DNA from: Dehalococcoidia bacterium
GTDB lineage: Bacteria > Chloroflexota > Dehalococcoidia > UBA2979
Reading direction: 5' to 3'
Assembly (NCBI GenBank): GCA_965262725.1
Contig: OZ253555.1
Coordinates: 3,610,404 to 3,674,403, forward strand
DNA length: 64,000 nt
The notes beneath the pieces are model-generated. The model was not told where the DNA came from. It was given only the letters and a program-made list of their open reading frames with translations, and did no database searches. Each line of letters begins with the position of its first letter. The stretch's first letter is position 1. Below are positions 38,580 through 51,617 of the stretch, in pieces. A program made the translations under genes and the position numbers.

Positions 38580-39362
38580 TCAGGTCGTTGGGGCACCTCC
38601 TCTCGGGGAGGTCGAGGCCCGGAGCCGGTAGGACTCGGTGCCGGTCTCGATGATATGGGCACGGTAGGTGAGGCGGTCAACGACGGCCGCGGCGAGACGA
38701 GGGTCGGTGAAGATGCGGCCCCACTCGGAGAACGGGGAGTTGGAGGCGACGGCGACCGATGCCCGTTCCTCGCGCTCGGTCAGGATCTGGAACAGCATTT
38801 CGGCACCGCGCGGGTCGAGGTGGACGTACCCGAACTCATCCAGGCAGAGCAGGTCGAGGCGGCCGTAGCGGGCGACGAGGCGTGAGAGCGCGCGATCATC
38901 CGACGCTTCGGCCAGTTCATTCACCAGGGCGGCCGTGGTCATGTACCGCACGCGCAGCCCCAGGTGGCAGGCGGCCATGCCGAGGCCGATGAGCAGGTGT
39001 GACTTCCCGGTGCCGCTGTCACCGAGCAGGACGACGGGCTCGCCCCTTTCGACCCAGTCGCAGCGCTCCAGCGTGGCGAGCGCCGGCGCGTCGACTGTCG
39101 GCGCCGCCTCGAGGTCGAAGTCGGCGAGGTACTTGAAACGCGGGAACCGCGCCTCGACGATACGGCGCTGACGGCGCCGCTCCTCACGGTCATCGCGTTC
39201 GGCTCCCAGCACTTCGGCGAGATAGCCCAGATGGGTGATCCGGTCTCGGACCGCGGCTTCGGCGAGCGGGAGCGCCTGCTTCCTGACGGTGGGGAGACGG
39301 AGCTCGCGGCAGATCGCCTCGATTGTCAGCTCCGCGGCCTGGTCGGTGAGGGGTGCTGTCAT
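38580..39362 (-). CDS. istB: IS21 helper ATPase IstB
   Basis: GDSGTGKSH, LLCLDEFGY and AVVDRL. Confidence 0.95.
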   Translation of the reverse strand: MTAPLTDQAAELTIEAICRELRLPTVRKQALPLAEAAVRDRITHLGYLAEVLGAERDDREERRRQRRIVEARFPRFKYLADFDLEAAPTVDAPALATLERCDWVERGEPVVLLGDSGTGKSHLLIGLGMAACHLGLRVRYMTTAALVNELAEASDDRALSRLVARYGRLDLLCLDEFGYVHLDPRGAEMLFQILTEREERASVAVASNSPFSEWGRIFTDPRLAAAVVDRLTYRAHIIETGTESYRLRASTSPRGGAPTT

Positions 39363-39378
39363 CGGGTGCCTCCTGTGG

Positions 39379-41013
39379 TCAGCGTGCCGTCGACACCGCA
39401 GCGGTGACGGCGGTTGTGGTGGTGTGCGACGCGTTCTCGGCAGACCGCGGAGCGCGGGAGCGCCCGCCCGGCGACGTGCCGGGCCATCGGGAATCACCCG
39501 AGAGCAGCGCATCGTAGCCATCGAGGAGCGGGGCAGGTCGGTCGTAGCGCTCCAGGTGCGGTCTCTCGACGGCGGCGTCTGGTGGCCTGCGGTCGGCGAG
39601 ACGGCGCGCCTCGATGGCGACCAGTTCGGGGTTCACCGACTGGATCCTGTTGACCGTCCCGAGCGCGGCGTGCACCGCCGTGAAGGGAAGATGGCGATGC
39701 AGGAGCAGGACCTCGATGTACGCCTGCGTGCCCGCGCGGTCGCCGAGCTTGCGGCGGGCGCGGTCCCAGAAGCGCTGATGCTCGGCTGTGACGTGTCCCT
39801 TCGCACGCGCCTGCTGGAGCGCCACCGAGCCCGGGACCGCCCCGGGCTTGCGCGCGAGCACCTCCAGATAGTGGTCGAGCAGCAGGACCTCTGCTCCGGT
39901 GCGGGCGCTGCGCTCGTGGTGGGCGACTTCACGCCCCTCGGCCCACACGGTCAGGCTGTTCCCGGACAGCCGCACGTCCAGCTTCCGGCCTGCATAGGCC
40001 GCCGGGACCGAGTAGCGGGAGCTACGCACGGCGATGCGCGCCTTGCGGTCGACCTTCGCGCGCAGCGGGATTGACGGGTCGAAGCGCTCCGCCGGAAGCG
40101 GACGCAGCGAGGCCTTCTCGTTCTCTCCCATCTCGCCGACGGTGGCGAGGCGGCTCTCGATGTGCCGGGCGTCGTCGGTGCGGTCCGCCTCCCGCACTCG
40201 TTCGTTCAGCTCGCCGAGGGTCGCCACCTTCGGGACCGGCACGAAGTGCCGCCGGCGGAAGCGGCCGACCTCGCCCTCCACACCGCCCTTCTCGTGCGCG
40301 CCCTCGATGCCGGGCTCACAGAAGAAGCTGTCGAAGCCGTAATGCGAGCGGAGCGCGATGAAGCGCTCGGTCTGCAGGCGCTCGCGTCCCTGCAGCACGG
40401 TGGTGACGGCCGCCGTCAGATTGTCGTAGCGGATGCGCCGCGGCACTCCGCCGAGCCGCTCGAAGGCGACCACGTGCCCCTCGAGCAGAGACTCCTGGCC
40501 CTCGCCGACGAAGCAGACGTGCGCCGCCCGCCCCGAATGCGAGAGCCGCATCACGAACATCGCCAGCCGGGTCTCGACGCCCTCCAGCCACACCGTCACC
40601 GTGCCGAAGTCGACCTCCGCCTCCTCGCCGGGAGGATGGACCTGCGGGATCGTCACAACCGCGCGCCCGCCCTGGATCTCGCGACGCAGGCGCGCGACGC
40701 AGGCGCGGACCGTGGGCTCGGCCACCGTCGCCCCGTGTTCGTCGACGAGGCGCTCCCAGATGCGCCGGGCCGTGTGCCGCTGCTTGCGCGGCGCGCTGAG
40801 GTCGTCCACGAGCCAGCCCCGGATGACCGAGACGTACGGCCCGAGCTTCGGGGCCACGCGGGTCGCCTGCTTGCGTTCCGGGGGTATCGCCGACCCAAGA
40901 GCCTGCCGCACCGTGCGCCGGTGCACGCCATGCCGGCGTCCCAGCTCATGGATCGACAGCTCCTCCTCCCTCGCCATCCGTCGGATAGACTCGAACAGCT
41001 CCACTCTCGACAC
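39379..41013 (-). CDS. istA: IS21 transposase IstA
   Basis: MSRVELFESIRR, PRKQRHTARRI, EVDFG, RYDN and HEKGGVEGEVG. Confidence 0.95.
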   Translation of the reverse strand: MSRVELFESIRRMAREEELSIHELGRRHGVHRRTVRQALGSAIPPERKQATRVAPKLGPYVSVIRGWLVDDLSAPRKQRHTARRIWERLVDEHGATVAEPTVRACVARLRREIQGGRAVVTIPQVHPPGEEAEVDFGTVTVWLEGVETRLAMFVMRLSHSGRAAHVCFVGEGQESLLEGHVVAFERLGGVPRRIRYDNLTAAVTTVLQGRERLQTERFIALRSHYGFDSFFCEPGIEGAHEKGGVEGEVGRFRRRHFVPVPKVATLGELNERVREADRTDDARHIESRLATVGEMGENEKASLRPLPAERFDPSIPLRAKVDRKARIAVRSSRYSVPAAYAGRKLDVRLSGNSLTVWAEGREVAHHERSARTGAEVLLLDHYLEVLARKPGAVPGSVALQQARAKGHVTAEHQRFWDRARRKLGDRAGTQAYIEVLLLHRHLPFTAVHAALGTVNRIQSVNPELVAIEARRLADRRPPDAAVERPHLERYDRPAPLLDGYDALLSGDSRWPGTSPGGRSRAPRSAENASHTTTTAVTAAVSTAR

Positions 41014-41814: not shown

Positions 41815-42210
41815 CTATGGGATTGATGGATTGCTGGATACGGCCGCGAACGCTTGGTCAAAGGTCTTGATCTCTCGGACTCCACGCTTTCGACAACTGG
41901 CTAGGTGGCAGAGGTCCCGGGCTTGTAACGCGGGATATTGCTCATGGAGTTGACGGGCCAGAGCCACGTCCGCCTCCTCCAGCGGCCACACGTCAACTCC
42001 GGCACTTGTTATCAAACCTAGCGTGGCATCAAGGGTTTGCAGCCTTCCGATGGGCAAGTACGCATGGGCCAGTTCCTGCATGACCTCTGCTGAAGTGCAC
42101 AGCGGTGCGCCACTTCGGTTAGCCCCGACGAAGAATTCCTGGGCGTTCGCTCGGAGAGCGTGGGGGCGTCCTACGGCGTACATGAAGACGTTGGTGTCAA
42201 CGAAAATCAC
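41815..42210 (-). CDS. vapC: VapC PIN-domain toxin
   Basis: MIFVDTNVFMYAVG, SAEVMQE, ARDLCHLA and TFD. Confidence 0.92.
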   Translation of the reverse strand: MIFVDTNVFMYAVGRPHALRANAQEFFVGANRSGAPLCTSAEVMQELAHAYLPIGRLQTLDATLGLITSAGVDVWPLEEADVALARQLHEQYPALQARDLCHLASCRKRGVREIKTFDQAFAAVSSNPSIP

Positions 42211-42482
42211 GTACTGGCAACTCCTCGGCCGCGCGAATCGCTCATCACGCGCACGTGTTCATCCCAGTCCGGCTCCGTCTCCGGGCCTTCCAGCGCCGCG
42301 CATGATCTGAAGAACTCCTCAACGTCCTCCGGTGACTGGAATAGCGTGACGCTCTGGCGCTTTGCGAGGCGCTCGCGCGCAGCTGCGCGCAGCCAGGCGC
42401 TGAGGGACATGCCCTCCTGTCGTGCCTGGTGAACGAAGCGGTCTCGGTCATCGTCTGCCATGACCAACTGCACTCTGGCCAC
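42207..42482 (-). CDS. Antitoxin (ribbon-helix-helix-like) paired with VapC
   Basis: ARVQLVM...ARQEGMSLSAWLRAAA; GTGA overlap with the toxin. Confidence 0.85.
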   Translation of the reverse strand: MARVQLVMADDDRDRFVHQARQEGMSLSAWLRAAARERLAKRQSVTLFQSPEDVEEFFRSCAALEGPETEPDWDEHVRVMSDSRGRGVAST

Positions 42483-42921: not shown

Positions 42922-43179
42922 GTGAGCATCAACATCAAGAACAAGGAGACGTGTCAGCTCGCGAGTGAGTTGGCGCAACTGACCGGGGAGACCATGACCG
43001 GAGCGATCACGGTGGCCCTCAGGCAGCGCTTGGAGCGCGAGAAGAGCGAGCGCAGCGCCGAGGCCCGCGTTCAGCGACTTCTCACCATCGGAAAACGCTG
43101 CGCCAGCATGTTGGGCGACGGTCCATCCGCCGTCGAGCACGGTGATCTCCTGTACGACGAACGGGGGCTGCCGAAGTGA
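42922..43179 (+). CDS. vapB: VapB antitoxin (Rv0623-like)
   Basis: MSINIKN...LAQLTGETMTGAI..AL...LLYDERGLPK. Confidence 0.93.
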   Translation: MSINIKNKETCQLASELAQLTGETMTGAITVALRQRLEREKSERSAEARVQRLLTIGKRCASMLGDGPSAVEHGDLLYDERGLPK

Positions 43180-43562
43180 TTGTCGACACGTCGGCGGTCC
43201 TCGCGATCCTCTTCCACGAGCCGGATGCGGAGCGCTTTGCATTGGCCATCACGACGGCGTCCTCCCGCCGCATGTCGGTCGCCACTCTTGTGGAAGCGGC
43301 CATCGTCCTTGAGAGCCGCAGTGGCGCCGCAGCCGGTTACGAGCTTGATGCCTTTCTGGAAGAGGCGGAGATTGAACTGGAGCCGGTCACGGCCCACCAG
43401 GCGCAGGCGGCGCGCAGGGCGTGGCGAAGGTTCGGCAAGGGCAACCACACGGCGGGACTGAACTTCGGTGACTGCTTCGCCTATGCGCTTGCCGAAGCGA
43501 CCAGGGAGCCGCTTCTGTTCCAGGGCCACGACTTCGAACTCACCGATATCGAGGTTGCCTGA
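43176..43562 (+). CDS. vapC: VapC PIN-domain toxin
   Basis: MIVDTSAVLAIL..EP, FGKGNH..GLNFGDCFAYALA and PLLF.G.DF..TDI. Confidence 0.95.
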   Translation: MIVDTSAVLAILFHEPDAERFALAITTASSRRMSVATLVEAAIVLESRSGAAAGYELDAFLEEAEIELEPVTAHQAQAARRAWRRFGKGNHTAGLNFGDCFAYALAEATREPLLFQGHDFELTDIEVA

Positions 43563-43659
43563 CTCCGAACACAACCCTCCGGCAGTCGTGGCCTGCGCAC
43601 ACTGAGGAGACGACTGTAAGGCGGTGGACCAGCGGGCAGCACGCGTGTCCCCGGCCGAC

Positions 43660-43790
43660 GCCGACCTCGTAGCGGTCGTCGAGGGCTCCGGCGATGAAGT
43701 CGATCGCAAGTTGGACGTCCACGCCCTTCTGCGCGGCCCTGCTCGCCGGCCAGTCCATCGGGTAGCGCACCGCGTGCGGGATCACGACGG
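43660..43790 (-). pseudogene. NYN (LabA/DUF88) nuclease fragment
   Basis: VRYP...QKGVDVQLAIDFIAGALDDRYEVGV resembles the NYN KGVDV motif; no intact flanks. Confidence 0.6.
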
Positions 43791-44011
43791 TCCCGTCGCG
43801 CCCCCACGCCTGGCACTGAAGCGGTCTGCGGGCGGATTGGAATTCCGATCGTTTCGAGACACACAAGCCGTTCCGACTCGGCCATCATCGCTGCCATCGT
43901 CGCAGGGATGTCGCTACTGCTCGGACAAGTGACAGGCTACGCTGCGGGGACACGCTGCTCTCCGGGTCGCGGGCTGCGGCGGGGCAACACGTTGCCGGCC
44001 GCCATCGGGAG

Positions 44012-44040
44012 TTGACGCGCGTCAAGTCAGGACTTAACGT
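44012..44040 (+). promoter_or_regulatory. Promoter with overlapping palindromic operator for the TAC operon
   Basis: TTGACG-17nt-TAACGT. Palindromes TTGACGCGCGTCAA (44012-44025) and GTCAAGTC-AG-GACTTAAC (44021-44038). Confidence 0.65.
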
Positions 44041-44438
44041 TGCCCCTGAGGCAAATCCACGCCGGACCAGCTTATGCGGTACTCGCGTACGAGTCGAGCA
44101 ACGGCAAGTGCCAGGTTGCGGAGTATCTGGACCAGCTTGAGCCTCGAGACCGGAAGCGCATCGCCGCTCTCCTGCTGCGGGCGGCGGAGAGCGGACCGCC
44201 CCGGAACACCGAGAAGTCCGCTGCGATCGAGGACTTCTTCGAGTTCAAGTCGCACCAGGTGAGGATCTTCTGGTGCTACGCGGCGGGAAAGCGGATCGTG
44301 CTGTTTCATGGATTCACCAAGAAGAGCCGCAAGACGCCGACGAACGAGCTGGAGACCGGCAGGCGGCTTTATCAGGAGGTAAGGGACGACATCGCAGCTG
44401 AGGGGGTTGGCGGTGACCAGACTGCAGGACTGGATTAG
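44040..44438 (+). CDS. RelE/ParE-superfamily (Gp49-like/HigB-like) toxin
   Basis: GKCQVAEYLDQL...FFEFKSHQVRIFW...IVLFHGFTKKSRKTP.NELE. Confidence 0.9.
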   Translation: MPLRQIHAGPAYAVLAYESSNGKCQVAEYLDQLEPRDRKRIAALLLRAAESGPPRNTEKSAAIEDFFEFKSHQVRIFWCYAAGKRIVLFHGFTKKSRKTPTNELETGRRLYQEVRDDIAAEGVGGDQTAGLD

Positions 44439-44784
44439 CGAGTTCCAGGGCGATCCCGACTACGAGTTCGACAGGATCGCCATCGAGATCGGCGAGCAGG
44501 TCGTGGCACGCATGGAAGAGCAGGGCATGACGCAGGCCGACCTTGCGCGCGCGATCGGCGTGAGCCGGGCGCGCATCAACCAGATCCTGCGCGGCAACGA
44601 CAACCTGACGCTCAAGAGCATCGTCGCCGTCGCCATCGGCCTCGACTGCCGTGTCGACTTGCGGCTTCAGCAGGCCAAGTCCGGCCGGCAGCTCTCGCGC
44701 CGTGACTGCCGCCGGGTGGATGCCGGCAGGACCGGAGGGATCGGCGAGGTCGTCCTGACATCGGCGCTGGCCGCCGCCGCCTAG
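44407..44784 (+). CDS. XRE-family HTH antitoxin (HigA-like) with C-terminal extension
   Basis: GMTQADLARAIGVSRARINQILRG..NLTLKSI, followed by a roughly 38-aa tail ending SALAAAA. Confidence 0.88.
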   Translation: MAVTRLQDWISEFQGDPDYEFDRIAIEIGEQVVARMEEQGMTQADLARAIGVSRARINQILRGNDNLTLKSIVAVAIGLDCRVDLRLQQAKSGRQLSRRDCRRVDAGRTGGIGEVVLTSALAAAA

Positions 44785-44791
44785 CGCCTAG

Positions 44792-45208
44792 ATGGCACGC
44801 AAGCTTCGCCTTCGTCAGGTAGGCCAGGCGGCGCTCGACCTCCAGCGCTTCTGGATCGAACGGCTCGAGTACGAGGAAGAGGACGAGGTTCCGGACGAGC
44901 CACCGGCCACGACCGTCCGCGTCTCACGCCCGGAGATCCTCGACGCGGGCGACGGCAAGTACCTCGTCACGCTGCGGCTGAAGATCGAGCAGGGTGAGAC
45001 GCGCTCTCTGGACCTCACGGTCGCCGGGGCGTTCCTGCTCCCGCCGGACGCCGAGGGGCAGCCCCCCTCTCTGAGGATGCTCGTGTACAACGGCTCGGCC
45101 ATCCTGTTCAGCGCGGCGCGGGGCATCATCGAGTCCGTCACGGGGGTCAGCGGCCTGGGGCGAATGCACGTGCCCTCGGTCAATATCGCGGAGGTCCTCG
45201 AACGCTAG
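44792..45208 (+). CDS. SecB-like chaperone
   Basis: YLVTLRLKI...LDLTVAGAF...NGSAILFSAARGIIESVT...G...HVPSVNI matches the SecB C-terminal N.PAILFPY.R...T...G.PP..LP.VNF pattern. Confidence 0.85.
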   Translation: MARKLRLRQVGQAALDLQRFWIERLEYEEEDEVPDEPPATTVRVSRPEILDAGDGKYLVTLRLKIEQGETRSLDLTVAGAFLLPPDAEGQPPSLRMLVYNGSAILFSAARGIIESVTGVSGLGRMHVPSVNIAEVLER

Positions 45209-45339
45209 TGCCGGACCCTCGCGCGCGCGAGGTCGGTCCCGCGCTCCTCTCCGTGGAACTGTTACTGAAGCCTGCTCGCCCAGGGGGCCTTGCCGGACGG
45301 CATCCTTGACGGCTACCCCGGCCTCGATCCAGAGGATTC

Positions 45340-45480
45340 TCGGTGTCGTTGAGCAGCGCGCTCCCCCGTTCCTCCAGTTCCACAATCAGATCAAGGATCG
45401 CCGCCACGTCGCGCTTGTCCCCCGATCGCCCAAGTCGTTCTACATACACGGCAACGGGTTCGTCCCCTCTCGCGGAGTGA
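45340..45480 (-). pseudogene. N-terminal remnant of a second Gp49/RelE-like toxin
   Basis: HSARGDEPVAVYVERL...VAAILDLIVELEERG resembles the Gp49-like N-terminus. Confidence 0.45.
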
Positions 45481-45619
45481 CCGTCGCGCGGCCCGTCCTC
45501 AGGCGGATTGAGGCCTGGGGCGCGACGGCTCACTGGCGGCCACGGTTCGCCAGGCCGCTCCCAGCGGCCCCTCGCGCTCCAGCGCCGCGCGGTGGGAGAC
45601 GAACAGCGGCAGGTCAACG

Positions 45620-46551
45620 CGGGCGCGGTGGCTCTCGAACTGGCGGGAGATGGGGATCATCGTCCGGGACGAGCACCCCTCGTTCTATCTCCACGAGCAT
45701 CGGTTCATGGCCGACGGTCGGGTCCGGACGCGCCGCGCCATCTTCGGCGCGGTTGAACTTTCGGACTGGGGCGAGGCGGGCGTGATGGGCCACGAGCGCA
45801 CCATGCCGGGCCCGCGCGCGACGCGAACGGCCCTGCGCTCGCTCGTCGGGGCCGACGTCTCGCCGTTGCTGGCCTTCGTGCCCGACCGCGATCGGGACGT
45901 GGCCACACTCATCGCCGACGCCGGCCGCCGGCCACCCACGAACGTGGGTGTCGACCCGGGCGGGGACGAGCACACCCTGCGCGTGATCGACGATCCAGTC
46001 GAGGTTGCCGCGATGGAGTCGGCGTTTCTGTCTCAGTGCGTCCACATGGGCGATGGTCATCACCGCTACGAGTCCGCGCTGGCCTCGAGAGACGACCGGG
46101 CCGGTTCACGCAGCGTCCTGATGGGGATCGTCTGCGCCGACGACCCGGCCCTGGCCGTCGGGGCGACGCATCGTTTGGTGCACGTGCCGGCTCCGCCACG
46201 GCTGAGAGAGCGACTCGCGGCCTCATTCGTTGTCCGCGAGATCGCGCTCGGCGCGCTGCAGGCCTCCCTCCCGGACGGTAGCGCGACGTTCGCACTCGTT
46301 ACGGCGGACGGCGCGTACACGCTCGAACCGACGGAAGGCGCTCGGGCGGTAACGCCGTGACCTACACGCACGACCCGCAGGAAGCGCTGGATGCCGTGCA
46401 GCGCGGCTCGGCGGCGGCAGCCTTCATCCTCCCCGCGCCGACGTTGCAGGACGTGATCGACACCGCCGATGCCGGCGGCTTCATGCCGCAGAAGTCCACG
46501 TACTTCGTCCCGAGACTGCCCACGGGCGTCGTGCTGCACCCGTTTGAGTGA
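45620..46551 (+). pseudogene. DUF1015 family protein, N-terminally truncated and frameshifted
   Basis: HERT, DGHHRYESAL and ATHRL in one frame; MPQKSTYFVPRLPTG in another frame after 46357. Confidence 0.85.
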
Positions 46552-50492: not shown

Positions 50493-51617
50493 TCAGGCCA
50501 TGTCGCCCTGCCAGAGGCGGCGGGCGAAGTCGGTGGCCGGAAGGATATCGATGCCGCCGCTGGTCCTGCGGGCGCGCGGCTCCAGACAGACGACGATCCT
50601 GCGGGCGACACCGGGGTGCTCCTCCGCCAGGGTGCGAAGCCCCCTGAGGTGGTGGCTGGCGACCCGGACGCTCGCCTTCGCCTCGATCGCGATCCGCATG
50701 TCGCCCAGCACGAAATCGACCTCGATACCGCTGGGCAACCGCCAGTAGGTCAATTGCTCGTCGAAGTCGCGGTACGCGGCGTACGCCGAGAGCTCGTGGA
50801 ACACCCAGTTCTCGAACGCCTTCCCGTAGGAGTCGGAACCGCGCTCCAGCTCCCCCCGGCGCGCGAGCCGATTCACCACGCCGACGTCTTCGAAGTAGAG
50901 CTTCGGGGCAGCCACGAGCCGGCGCTTGGCTCGCCGCCGCCAGGCGGGAAGCCAGCGCGCGAGCAGGGTGTCCTCCAGGATGCCGAAGTAGGCCTTGGCG
51001 GTGGGACCGGAGACGCCACACTCACGGGCGACGCTCGAGTAGTTGACGGGATCACCGTCGCTCAGGGCGGCCGCGTCCAGGAATTCGGAGAACGCGGGCA
51101 GGTTGCGCACCAGTCCCTCGGCGGCGACCTCCTGGCGGAGGTAGTCGGAGATGTAGGCATCGAGCAGGCGGCGAGGGTGCCGAGCCTCGTACATCCTCGG
51201 GAGGTAGCCATGGTTGAGCGCGCGGTCGAGATCGAAGGAGTCGCCGAGCTCGCCAGACGTCAGCCCGCGCAACTCGTAGCGCAGGGCCCGCCCTCCCAGG
51301 AGGTTCGCCGCGCCGTGGCGGACCTTGCGGGCGCTGGAGCCGCACAGCGCAAAGCGGAGACCGCGGTTCTCGATGAGCCAGTGAACCTCGTCGATGACGA
51401 TCTGCCGGGCAGAGTCCAGGTCGGCCGCCTCCAGATCCTCGCGCAGAAGCTCGGGGCGGGAGACATAGCGGCGGAACTCGTCGGCCTTGAGCAGGTCGAA
51501 CCAGACGCCGTCGGGGTAGCACTGCCGTAGCAGCGTGCTCTTGCCCGACTGTCGAGGTCCCCACAGAAAGAAGGTCTCGGCGCCAGCATCAGGGAGCGAG
51601 AGGTCTCGTTCAAACAT
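50493..51617 (-). CDS. AAA+ ATPase with DUF4143 domain
   Basis: GPRQSGKST, IVIDEV, CGSSARK, LLGGRA, PKLYF.D.G and EVDFV...IEAK. Confidence 0.9.
   Translation of the reverse strand: MFERDLSLPDAGAETFFLWGPRQSGKSTLLRQCYPDGVWFDLLKADEFRRYVSRPELLREDLEAADLDSARQIVIDEVHWLIENRGLRFALCGSSARKVRHGAANLLGGRALRYELRGLTSGELGDSFDLDRALNHGYLPRMYEARHPRRLLDAYISDYLRQEVAAEGLVRNLPAFSEFLDAAALSDGDPVNYSSVARECGVSGPTAKAYFGILEDTLLARWLPAWRRRAKRRLVAAPKLYFEDVGVVNRLARRGELERGSDSYGKAFENWVFHELSAYAAYRDFDEQLTYWRLPSGIEVDFVLGDMRIAIEAKASVRVASHHLRGLRTLAEEHPGVARRIVVCLEPRARRTSGGIDILPATDFARRLWQGDMA

Follow-up and report, generated by a model that had tools for sequence, protein, structure and literature searches.

A stretch of 64,000 nucleotides from the genome of a Dehalococcoidia bacterium (assembly GCA_965262725.1, contig OZ253555.1, positions 3,610,404 to 3,674,403 of the forward strand), referred to here as the window, harbors three co-directional genes on its plus strand, which span positions 44040-45208 in the list of open reading frames (ORFs) of the window. 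They encode a HigB-type toxin, a HigA-type antitoxin with a C-terminal tail and a SecB-like chaperone, and the locus is probably a functional tripartite toxin–antitoxin–chaperone (TAC) module of the HigB/HigA/SecB-TA type. The order of the genes, the folds of the three products, their conservation and a degron-like terminus of the antitoxin are observed features of the locus.

The three genes and their products

The genes for the toxin and the antitoxin overlap by 26-32 nucleotides (nt), depending on the antitoxin start that is chosen. The sequence GAGGGGG at 44400-44406 fits the GTG start of the antitoxin, and the database copy of this protein has 123 amino acids (aa), in agreement with the form that starts there. 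The ATG of the chaperone gene, which has no visible ribosome-binding site, follows the antitoxin stop after only 7 nt, and this spacing suggests translational coupling of the chaperone gene to the antitoxin. The ORFs that lie between genes or on the opposite strand (43481-43932 and 45180-45785) gave no Pfam matches. The coordinates of the module and of its neighbours are collected in the table.

The toxin belongs to the Gp49/DUF891 family (PF05973), with a Pfam score of 49.9 bits against a cutoff of 23.9. An AlphaFold (AF2) model, built on a 40-row alignment that comprises 38 of 49 database homologues, the window entry and a paralogue, reached a mean predicted local distance difference test score (pLDDT) of 89.7 and includes a long C-terminal helix (residues 101-126). 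The best solved match to this fold in Foldseek is HigB of Streptococcus pneumoniae (6af4), with template modelling (TM) scores of 0.69-0.79, and HigB1, the toxin of the mycobacterial TAC, is among the top matches (7awk and 7nbu, TM 0.63-0.69); both outscore RelE, YoeB and other HigB2-type toxins. The toxin family profile also matches the S. pneumoniae protein (E 1.6e-13). All 40 aligned sequences have E68, K70, R75, K94 and K95, and the profile alignment pairs K70, R75 and K94 with R68, R73 and K92 of S. pneumoniae HigB, when residues are counted along the alignment and a 20-residue tag offset is assumed in the S. pneumoniae chain. According to PMC9098466, these last three correspond to R68, R77 and K95 in the toxin of mycobacteria and to the catalytic residues of RelE. 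Because the positions aligned to catalytic residues are invariant, the toxin looks catalytically competent. Its Pfam score, which exceeds the threshold, its RelE fold, extended by the C-terminal helix, and the three basic residues at the catalytic positions place it among the Gp49/HigB toxins of the RelE superfamily, and the defence-system database PADLOC returned for it only a weak match to NsnC (E 1.1e-5).

The antitoxin, encoded downstream of the toxin, matches the helix-turn-helix (HTH) domain HTH_3 with 45.4 bits (cutoff 23) over residues 35-84 of the 125-aa reading, the domain and gene order that define HigA/XRE antitoxins. Its score with the NCBIfam HigA model (29.6 bits) is below the cutoff of 47.7, so that it is classified as XRE/HigA-like and not as a member of that equivalog. 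The HTH domain is followed by a tail of about 39 residues, which is conserved in motif and terminus and which, like the C-terminal extension of TAC antitoxins, comes in addition to the domain known from two-gene homologues.

The third protein was identified only by comparison of folds, whereas direct sequence searches failed: against the sequences of solved structures its similarity is at chance level, both as a single sequence (E 1.6) and as a profile (E 1), and none of its 42 close homologues, all at least 56% identical, has a Pfam domain. For its AF2 model (pLDDT 86.6), Foldseek found SecB of E. coli (1qyn, TM 0.73), SecB of Haemophilus influenzae and Rv1957, the chaperone of the mycobacterial TAC (5mtw), all with a probability of 1.00. 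A second aligner, VIA-align, ranks Rv1957 first, with a Z of 12.4 and a root-mean-square deviation of 3.0 over 117 aligned residues. E. coli SecB follows with a Z of 11.1 and a functionally uncharacterised streptococcal protein with 9.9, after which the score drops to 6.6 for the next, unrelated chain. The chaperone alignment contains 33 homologues plus the window protein; an identical copy, three full-length rows and five shorter ones (97-132 aa) were excluded, nearly all of them from contigs under 1.5 kb. A search of 1.84 billion representatives with the family profile gives 336 proteins at E <= 0.001, and a Pfam scan of 50 of the better full-length relatives found SecB at E <= 0.01 in 39, with 28 above the cutoff and 11 without any match. 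The same profile finds a Pfam-positive SecB paralogue in the host genome (E 2.3e-10). Since the fold matches agree and the family profile reaches Pfam-positive SecB proteins, the third protein is a divergent SecB homologue. The chaperone also matches over nearly its full length a phage protein family of unknown function, phrog_21664 (E 1.7e-6), which is probably SecB-like too.

A first-pass annotation, made from the sequence before any database search, had described three tightly coupled genes in a TAC-type operon of a Chloroflexota-like lineage, and had placed this unit at 44012-45208. The overlap and the short gap confirm the coupling, and the three genes do form one operon-like unit whose order is kept in nine other genomes and in a paralogous copy; the trio is real within that span, although 44012 marks a TTGACG hexamer and not the start of a gene. 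The lineage agrees with the relatives' loci, which come from metagenome-assembled genomes of Dehalococcoidia or Chloroflexi. The products that it had named were also recovered: a RelE-fold Gp49 toxin (by the Pfam score and the matches to HigB structures), an XRE antitoxin with a long C-terminal tail (by the HTH_3 score and the conserved tail of 39 residues) and a protein with the SecB fold, which was found by two aligners, so that the contrary outcome named in advance, a third ORF lacking such a fold, did not occur. In the profile and structure searches that it had proposed, Gp49 and HTH_3 pass their Pfam thresholds, whereas SecB passes by fold and misses the Pfam threshold.

Table. Features of the TAC locus and of its surroundings in the window
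Feature	Position	Strand	Remarks
Left end of conserved cassette	43948-44011	+	doxX 3'-end remnant (about 43948-43971, ~22 nt) and poorly conserved spacer
Conserved regulatory block with palindromes and Shine-Dalgarno (SD)-like AGGA	44012-44039	+	-35 and -10 hexamers of the first-pass annotation fall here
higB-type toxin gene, Gp49/DUF891 family, RelE fold, long C-terminal helix	44040-44438	+	132 aa, TTG start
higA-type antitoxin gene, XRE	44413-44784	+	123 aa from GTG 44413 (125 aa from TTG 44407)
Antitoxin C-terminal tail, putative chaperone-addiction region	44665-44781	+	Residues 85-123 of 123-aa form; RRDCRRV, terminal ALAAAA
SecB-like chaperone gene (SecB-TA type)	44792-45208	+	138 aa, ATG start; stop codon is right end of conserved cassette
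istB-like ATPase gene of IS21 element	38580-39521	-	IstB_IS21 205.7 bits
istA-like transposase gene of IS21 element	39379-41013	-	Mu-transposase C-terminal domain
PIN-domain gene	41815-42210	-	Within toxin–antitoxin (TA) cluster upstream of TAC
Small ORF upstream of lone PIN gene	42210-42440		Weak NikA/RHH-like match
VapB-like (Rv0623-like) gene	42922-43179	+	Pairs with PIN gene
PIN gene of VapB-like/PIN pair	43176-43562	+
DUF1015 ORF	45650-46360	+	Covers profile positions 76-307 of 325, N-terminal part missing
AAA_14 and DUF4143 ATPase gene, unknown role	50493-51617	-	~5 kb downstream of TAC

The antitoxin tail and the proposed mechanism

In the mycobacterial system, the chaperone-addiction region (ChAD) of HigA1 is reported to make the antitoxin prone to aggregation and degradation, and SecB-TA binds to this tail (PMC5105189). 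The terminal Val-Ala of HigA1 is described as a ClpX degron, located in the same region as the site to which the chaperone binds (PMC8165232; bioRxiv 10.1101/2024.02.24.581848). The last of these sources also reports that CmdA of E. coli ends in Ala-Ala and depends on ClpXP, while HigA of E. coli NT1F31 ends in Leu-Pro and is ClpXP-independent.

The tail of the window antitoxin was aligned with those of homologues, giving 31 sequences chosen for carrying the same tail type. In these, the C-R-x-V within the arginine-rich motif RRxCRPV hardly varies, the linker is variable and every tail ends in Ala-Ala. In the window protein the nearly invariant residues are C99, R100 and V102, and its tail contains no Phe, Trp or Tyr; among the 31 chosen tails, 22 have no aromatic residue, seven have one and two have two, and no column is more than 10% aromatic. 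In the wider set of 89 antitoxin homologues from the database, 50 end in Ala-Ala (24 in AAAA, 14 in PLAA and 12 in another xxAA). Most of the antitoxins with other ends form a subfamily of about 111 aa, which ends in LARST, LARAT, LASSA or LAPAT and is devoid of the RRxCRPV motif.

The host encodes what a ClpX-type degron would require. Its transfer-messenger RNA (tmRNA) tag reads GERQLALAA, whose LALAA end is resembled by the LAAAA of the antitoxin terminus, and clpX (607 bits) and clpP (249 bits) are neighbouring genes, at 1.30 Mb in the genome; degradation of the antitoxin by this route would follow by analogy. Because of the ALAAAA end, the LALAA of the tmRNA tag and the presence of clpX and clpP, we infer that a degron of the ssrA type is hidden by the chaperone.

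The proposed model is as follows. HigB would act through ribosome-associated cleavage of mRNA, and HigA would neutralise the toxin and repress the operon via the conserved palindromes just upstream of higB. The HigA tail of about 39 residues would be destabilising, its ssrA-like Ala-Ala degron being offered to the host ClpXP, unless a tetramer of the SecB-like protein binds the tail, masks the degron and keeps the antitoxin active. Titration of the chaperone, or a halt in its synthesis, would then free the toxin and lead to translation arrest. For the binding, the chaperone dependence, the proteolysis and the toxicity, the model draws on the characterised TACs described above.

The composition of the tail has led to a further, quite improbable proposal, namely that the tail, which is short, aromatic-free and rich in arginine, docks through its nearly invariant RRxCRPV motif on the acidic SecB-like protein, as a chemically different chaperone-addiction element. 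The chaperone has 21 Asp and Glu against 16 Lys and Arg, plus an EYEEEDEVPDE stretch. The docking could take place on the SecB face that accepts the basic, cysteine-bearing tail of SecA, the single conserved Cys could make the release of the antitoxin and the activation of the toxin sensitive to redox state or to metals, and LAAAA would copy the end of the host ssrA tag.

Regulatory region, conservation and genomic history

The 28 nt before the toxin start are the most conserved non-coding stretch at the locus, and they follow a variable segment that begins after the stop of the upstream gene. Across the eight aligned loci, TTGAC..GT.AAG.CAGGACTTAAC shows little or no variation, and its TTGAC and G.CAGGACTTAAC parts do not vary at all. 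An inverted-repeat scan found the palindrome TTGACGC/GCGTCAA at 44012-44025, and a second one, AAGTC-AG-GACTT, is located at 44024-44035; an SD-like AGGA (44029-44032) lies 7 nt before the toxin start. The start codon is TTG in seven of the eight loci and GTG in one, the following codons (Pro, Leu, Arg) vary mainly at third positions, and single-base indels occur only upstream of the start. This exchange of TTG for GTG, the third-position variation and the confinement of the indels support the TTG as the genuine start of the toxin; near its 5' end there is no later in-frame ATG, GTG or TTG.

The first-pass annotation had seen here a promoter overlapped by palindromes. Its hexamers, TTGACG (44012-44017) and TAACGT (44035-44040) with a 17-nt spacer, are present, as are the palindromes, but the promoter role is doubtful, since the -10 hexamer runs into the conserved start codon. 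This codon begins with the final T of TAACGT, so that a transcript starting about 7 nt past this hexamer would miss it. Instead of a promoter, the hexamers may represent operator half-sites, or transcription may start from a promoter at another place. The whole of 44012-44039 is probably the HigA operator together with the ribosome-binding site, a role for the palindromes that is plausible because the dimer of mycobacterial HigA1 is reported to bind one palindromic sequence (PMC6377645). The consensus scan of 43500-45700 found no terminator.

The association of the three genes goes beyond the window. All seven loci of species-representative genomes that were retrieved through the chaperone alone have the T-A-C order. 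A scan of the host's order, which comprises a single family and 98 other genomes, gave matches in 10 genomes: eight of 19 in one genus, one of four and one of 12 in two others, and none of the four in the host's own genus. The order is T-A-C in all nine loci inspected of these 10 genomes, seven being the loci above and two more distant (L022 and L023); the tenth matching genome (G455, E 7.3e-8) is outside this count. The synteny across genomes on which the first pass had asked for a check is thus conserved in nine other genomes of the host family and in a paralogous copy. The trio association is more than chance, because the order is kept in the seven chaperone-retrieved loci, in L022 and L023, and in the host paralogue.

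This paralogue is a second, divergent TAC, located at about 82957-84160 of C1 in the host genome. Its proteins share 33% (toxin), 34% (antitoxin) and 25% (chaperone) identity with those of the window and are recognised by Pfam as Gp49 (E 8.5e-12), HTH_3 (E 5e-8) and SecB (28.3 bits, above the cutoff of 26). The paralogous toxin has 123 aa and the antitoxin 138 aa, with an aromatic-containing tail that ends in AVAAAA, and about 44 nt are shared by the genes for the antitoxin and the chaperone. Next to the trio (L003:754-1959), in convergent orientation on the minus strand, is a gene for an AbiEii nucleotidyltransferase (Pfam 118 bits, L003:2204-3226). A profile and Pfam search found no SecB-like gene in the host genome beyond the two TAC copies, so that both SecB-like genes of the host are TA-linked.

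In the phylum at large, a sample of 400 other Chloroflexota genomes gave two weak Pfam SecB matches and none above the cutoff. The family profile found nothing at E <= 1e-5 in 400 other genomes of the phylum, in a scan that also missed the host paralogue (10 of 38 host candidates were scored) and that weak relatives may escape too. The two weak SecB-like ORFs (L024:1444-2031 on the minus strand, 24.3 bits; L025:1354-1794 on the plus strand, 22.0 bits) come from two Chloroflexota genomes of one family, and their neighbours have no Pfam match and no similarity to the toxin or antitoxin of the window.

Across eight orthologous loci, the median pairwise ratios of nonsynonymous to synonymous substitution rates (dN/dS), rough values on account of a high dS, are 0.27 for the toxin (26 of 28 pairs usable), 0.31 for the antitoxin and 0.21 for the chaperone (28 of 28 pairs each). 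Within the antitoxin, the core has 0.19 and the tail 0.51. Judged by these alignments, all three genes are under purifying selection.

The surroundings of the cassette differ between the host and its relatives. In the seven relatives it is located between the same genes, with an enolase-like gene, two genes for MaoC-like dehydratases and DoxX upstream, and with genes for a 371-aa protein, an ABM monooxygenase and NAPRTase downstream; homologues of these flanking genes are 0.67-1.4 Mb away in the host genome. Nucleotide similarity to the relatives (72-75% identity in blastn with four loci) is confined to 43948-45208. Its left limit is 43948 for three of the four loci (L004, L007 and L008) and 44012 for L006, and on the right it extends as far as the stop codon of the chaperone gene. 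The segment 43948-43971 is a remnant of about 22 nt of the doxX 3' end, at a place where the relatives carry the whole DoxX gene (Pfam 68.5 bits). The window has no doxX at the locus, and an intact doxX homologue of the host is about 0.89 Mb away. To the right of the cassette, the DUF1015 ORF looks like a 5'-truncated gene at the edge of a relocated segment; the ORFs just upstream of it have no Pfam match.

The confinement of the similarity to the cassette, the altered surroundings and the absence from the four other genomes of the genus suggest that the cassette has been relocated, or else came in from a lineage resembling the one in which it is frequent. With dS at 0.5-1.7, such a relocation or transfer would not be recent. 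That TACs are sparsely distributed over seven phyla, as a result of transfer, has been reported in a survey (PMC3581621).

Alternative readings and relation to known systems

Several observations weigh against a functional TAC module. The chaperone scores only 11.3 bits with Pfam SecB (E 0.32, cutoff 26) and has no NCBIfam or PADLOC match; neither is it recognisable as a housekeeping SecB, by this score, by the missing NCBIfam match and by a gene that is always TA-linked. Of the 89 antitoxin homologues, 39 are without the Ala-Ala end. The consensus scan of 43500-45700 gave no sigma-70-like promoter (0 sites); a leaderless transcript and a promoter farther upstream were considered, but no promoter was assigned on either view. 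The dS values are large (0.6-1.3), which makes the dN/dS values rough. The predicted complex of four chaperone copies with tail residues 82-123 speaks weakly in favour of binding, with a median score of 0.45 (runs 0.47, 0.45 and 0.29) against 0.01 for the best control, but this score is low and may echo 5mtw, as the memory of a like solved complex. When the prediction was calibrated, 116 of 157 solved complexes attained the mark, as did two of 215 mismatched pairs, and only 18 of these 157 and both mismatches scored 0.60 or lower; the runs agreed in at least 73% of contacts, with a partner pLDDT of at least 46.

A further objection concerns the tail, which has none of the aromatic residues that are essential in characterised chaperone-addiction regions, and thus no sign of aromatic recognition. 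These residues are reported to be W108, Y114 and W137 in mycobacterial HigA1 and W128, F158 and Y214 in E. coli HigA (PMC5105189; bioRxiv 10.1101/2024.02.24.581848). Since the ChADs of different TACs are described in PMC5105189 as having no significant similarity to each other, aromatic recognition is not a strict criterion for the TAC family, and a new type of ChAD would represent the expected diversity and not a new principle.

It is possible, and can be proposed tentatively, that the module goes beyond the TAC function outlined above and works as an abortive-infection phage sensor, a role that the first-pass annotation had also suggested. Competition between a phage structural protein and the tail for the chaperone would then lead to degradation of the antitoxin and to a shutdown of translation by HigB. 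HigBAC and CmdTAC of E. coli are reported to defend against phages, and HigC to sense the major tail protein of lambda (bioRxiv 10.1101/2024.02.24.581848; PMC11618068). The location of the TAC amid other TA modules beside an IS21 element, the AbiEii gene that adjoins the paralogous TAC and the match of the chaperone to phrog_21664 point in the same direction. However, PADLOC recognises neither the chaperone nor, except for the weak NsnC match, the toxin, the scan of viral contigs, with 36 candidate stretches, yielded no relative of the chaperone, and in the seven related genomes the cassette is located between housekeeping-type genes such as those for DoxX, the MaoC-like dehydratases and NAPRTase, and not in a defence island.

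The module could also be in the main a selfish cassette, one that serves addiction or stabilisation in a stretch of DNA that is mobile or undergoes rearrangement, and that is kept by post-segregational killing instead of by a cellular function. This account is unlikely, although much of the context agrees with it: the similarity stops exactly at the chaperone stop, the relatives' flanking genes have their homologues at distant places in the host, none of the other four genomes of the host genus has the cassette against eight of 19 in another genus, and the IS21 istA and istB genes are found within 5 kb together with three PIN or VapBC-type genes. The sparse distribution of TACs is likewise ascribed to horizontal transfer in PMC3581621. 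Nevertheless, the nucleotide identity of about 72-75% and the dS values indicate that any transfer is old, the genes are still intact under purifying selection, and no terminal repeats or integrase bound the cassette, as far as the inverted-repeat scan, the only search made for them, can tell.

It is very unlikely that the third gene encodes a general or export chaperone that is merely adjacent to an ordinary HigBA pair, with an antitoxin independent of it. Mycobacterial SecB-TA is reported to replace E. coli SecB partly in export (PMC5105189), and the lack of known aromatic determinants in the tail would fit such independence, but the gene directly follows a tailed HigA in all nine other genomes inspected and in the paralogue, the phylum sample contains almost no other SecB-like genes (weak matches in two of 400 genomes, none of 400 above the cutoff), and the 7-nt spacing suggests translational coupling. 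That the locus is a decaying, non-functional remnant is hardly credible, for although the region is rearranged and contains a doxX remnant and a DUF1015 gene truncated at its 5' end, and although the HigB2 and HigB3 paralogues of mycobacteria are described as non-toxic (PMC9098466), the three frames are open and full-length with respect to their homologues, the catalytic positions of the toxin are invariant and dN/dS is 0.2-0.3.

The TAC module of the HigB/HigA/SecB-TA type can be compared with characterised systems, of which the mycobacterial HigB1-HigA1-SecB(TA) (Rv1955-Rv1956-Rv1957) is the nearest in organisation. Both have the T-A-C gene order, a Gp49-like RelE-fold toxin with a long C-terminal helix (7awk, TM 0.63-0.69), an XRE-type HigA whose C-terminal extension ends in a small aliphatic dipeptide of the ClpX type, and a SecB-fold chaperone (Rv1957 being the top VIA-align match, Z 12.4) in a host without a housekeeping SecB. 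They differ in that the identity to the window proteins is only about 13-16% for the chaperone and about 18-20% for the toxin, and in that the window tail, of 39 residues, is free of aromatics and has RRxCRPV instead of W108, Y114 and W137. The window host belongs to the Chloroflexota, and the window chaperone has 138 aa, whereas the 5mtw match extends to chain residue 166.

The first-pass annotation had regarded the Gp49-like toxin as the mark of a TAC variant. This part of its interpretation does not hold, since the mycobacterial HigB is itself placed among "closely related Gp49-like toxins" (PMC9098466) and is a top fold match; the locus has the canonical HigBA-SecB architecture and is no Gp49 variant, because the mycobacterial TAC toxin is Gp49-like too.

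HigBAC of E. coli NT1F31 shares the HigB-HigA-SecB-like architecture, and its antitoxin is reported to be chaperone-addicted (bioRxiv 10.1101/2024.02.24.581848), a dependence that the window antitoxin would have by analogy. As described in that source, its ChAD of about 97 residues (122-218) carries W128, F158 and Y214, ends in Leu-Pro and is ClpXP-independent, whereas the window antitoxin has a short tail with an Ala-Ala end; the E. coli system is also prophage-borne, and the window TAC is chromosomal, beside IS21 and TA genes. CmdTAC of E. coli has in common with the window a SecB-like chaperone and an antitoxin tail ending in an Ala-Ala ClpX degron (bioRxiv 10.1101/2024.02.24.581848), but its toxin is reported to be an mRNA ADP-ribosyltransferase and not a RelE-fold RNase (PMC11618068). 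HigBA of S. pneumoniae (6af3/6af4) has the closest solved toxin (profile E 1.6e-13, TM 0.69-0.79), and differs, going by the title of the PDB entry, in being a two-component TA system without a chaperone.

In architecture, in the three folds and in the degron logic, the locus matches mycobacterial HigBA1-SecB-TA and is an already known kind of system. The real differences are the phylum, the short aromatic-free tail with its basic, Cys-bearing RRxCRPV motif, the presence of two divergent TACs in one genome and the signs of relocation. In the main text of the TAC literature searched, the string "Chloroflex" is absent, although the supplementary tables of two surveys (PMC3581621 and PMC4257090) might list TACs of Chloroflexi, and a full-text search combining Chloroflexi, SecB and toxin-antitoxin gave nothing on TACs by title or abstract.

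None of these findings overturns the current understanding of TAC modules. They extend the HigBA-SecB type to the Chloroflexota (Dehalococcoidia), where SecB-like genes are almost absent in the genomes sampled. The two divergent TACs in one genome are a natural pair for the comparison of specificity, and a compact, natural, aromatic-free tail with an ssrA-like end would test the generality of the model in which the chaperone recognises its antitoxin through aromatic residues held in a pocket.

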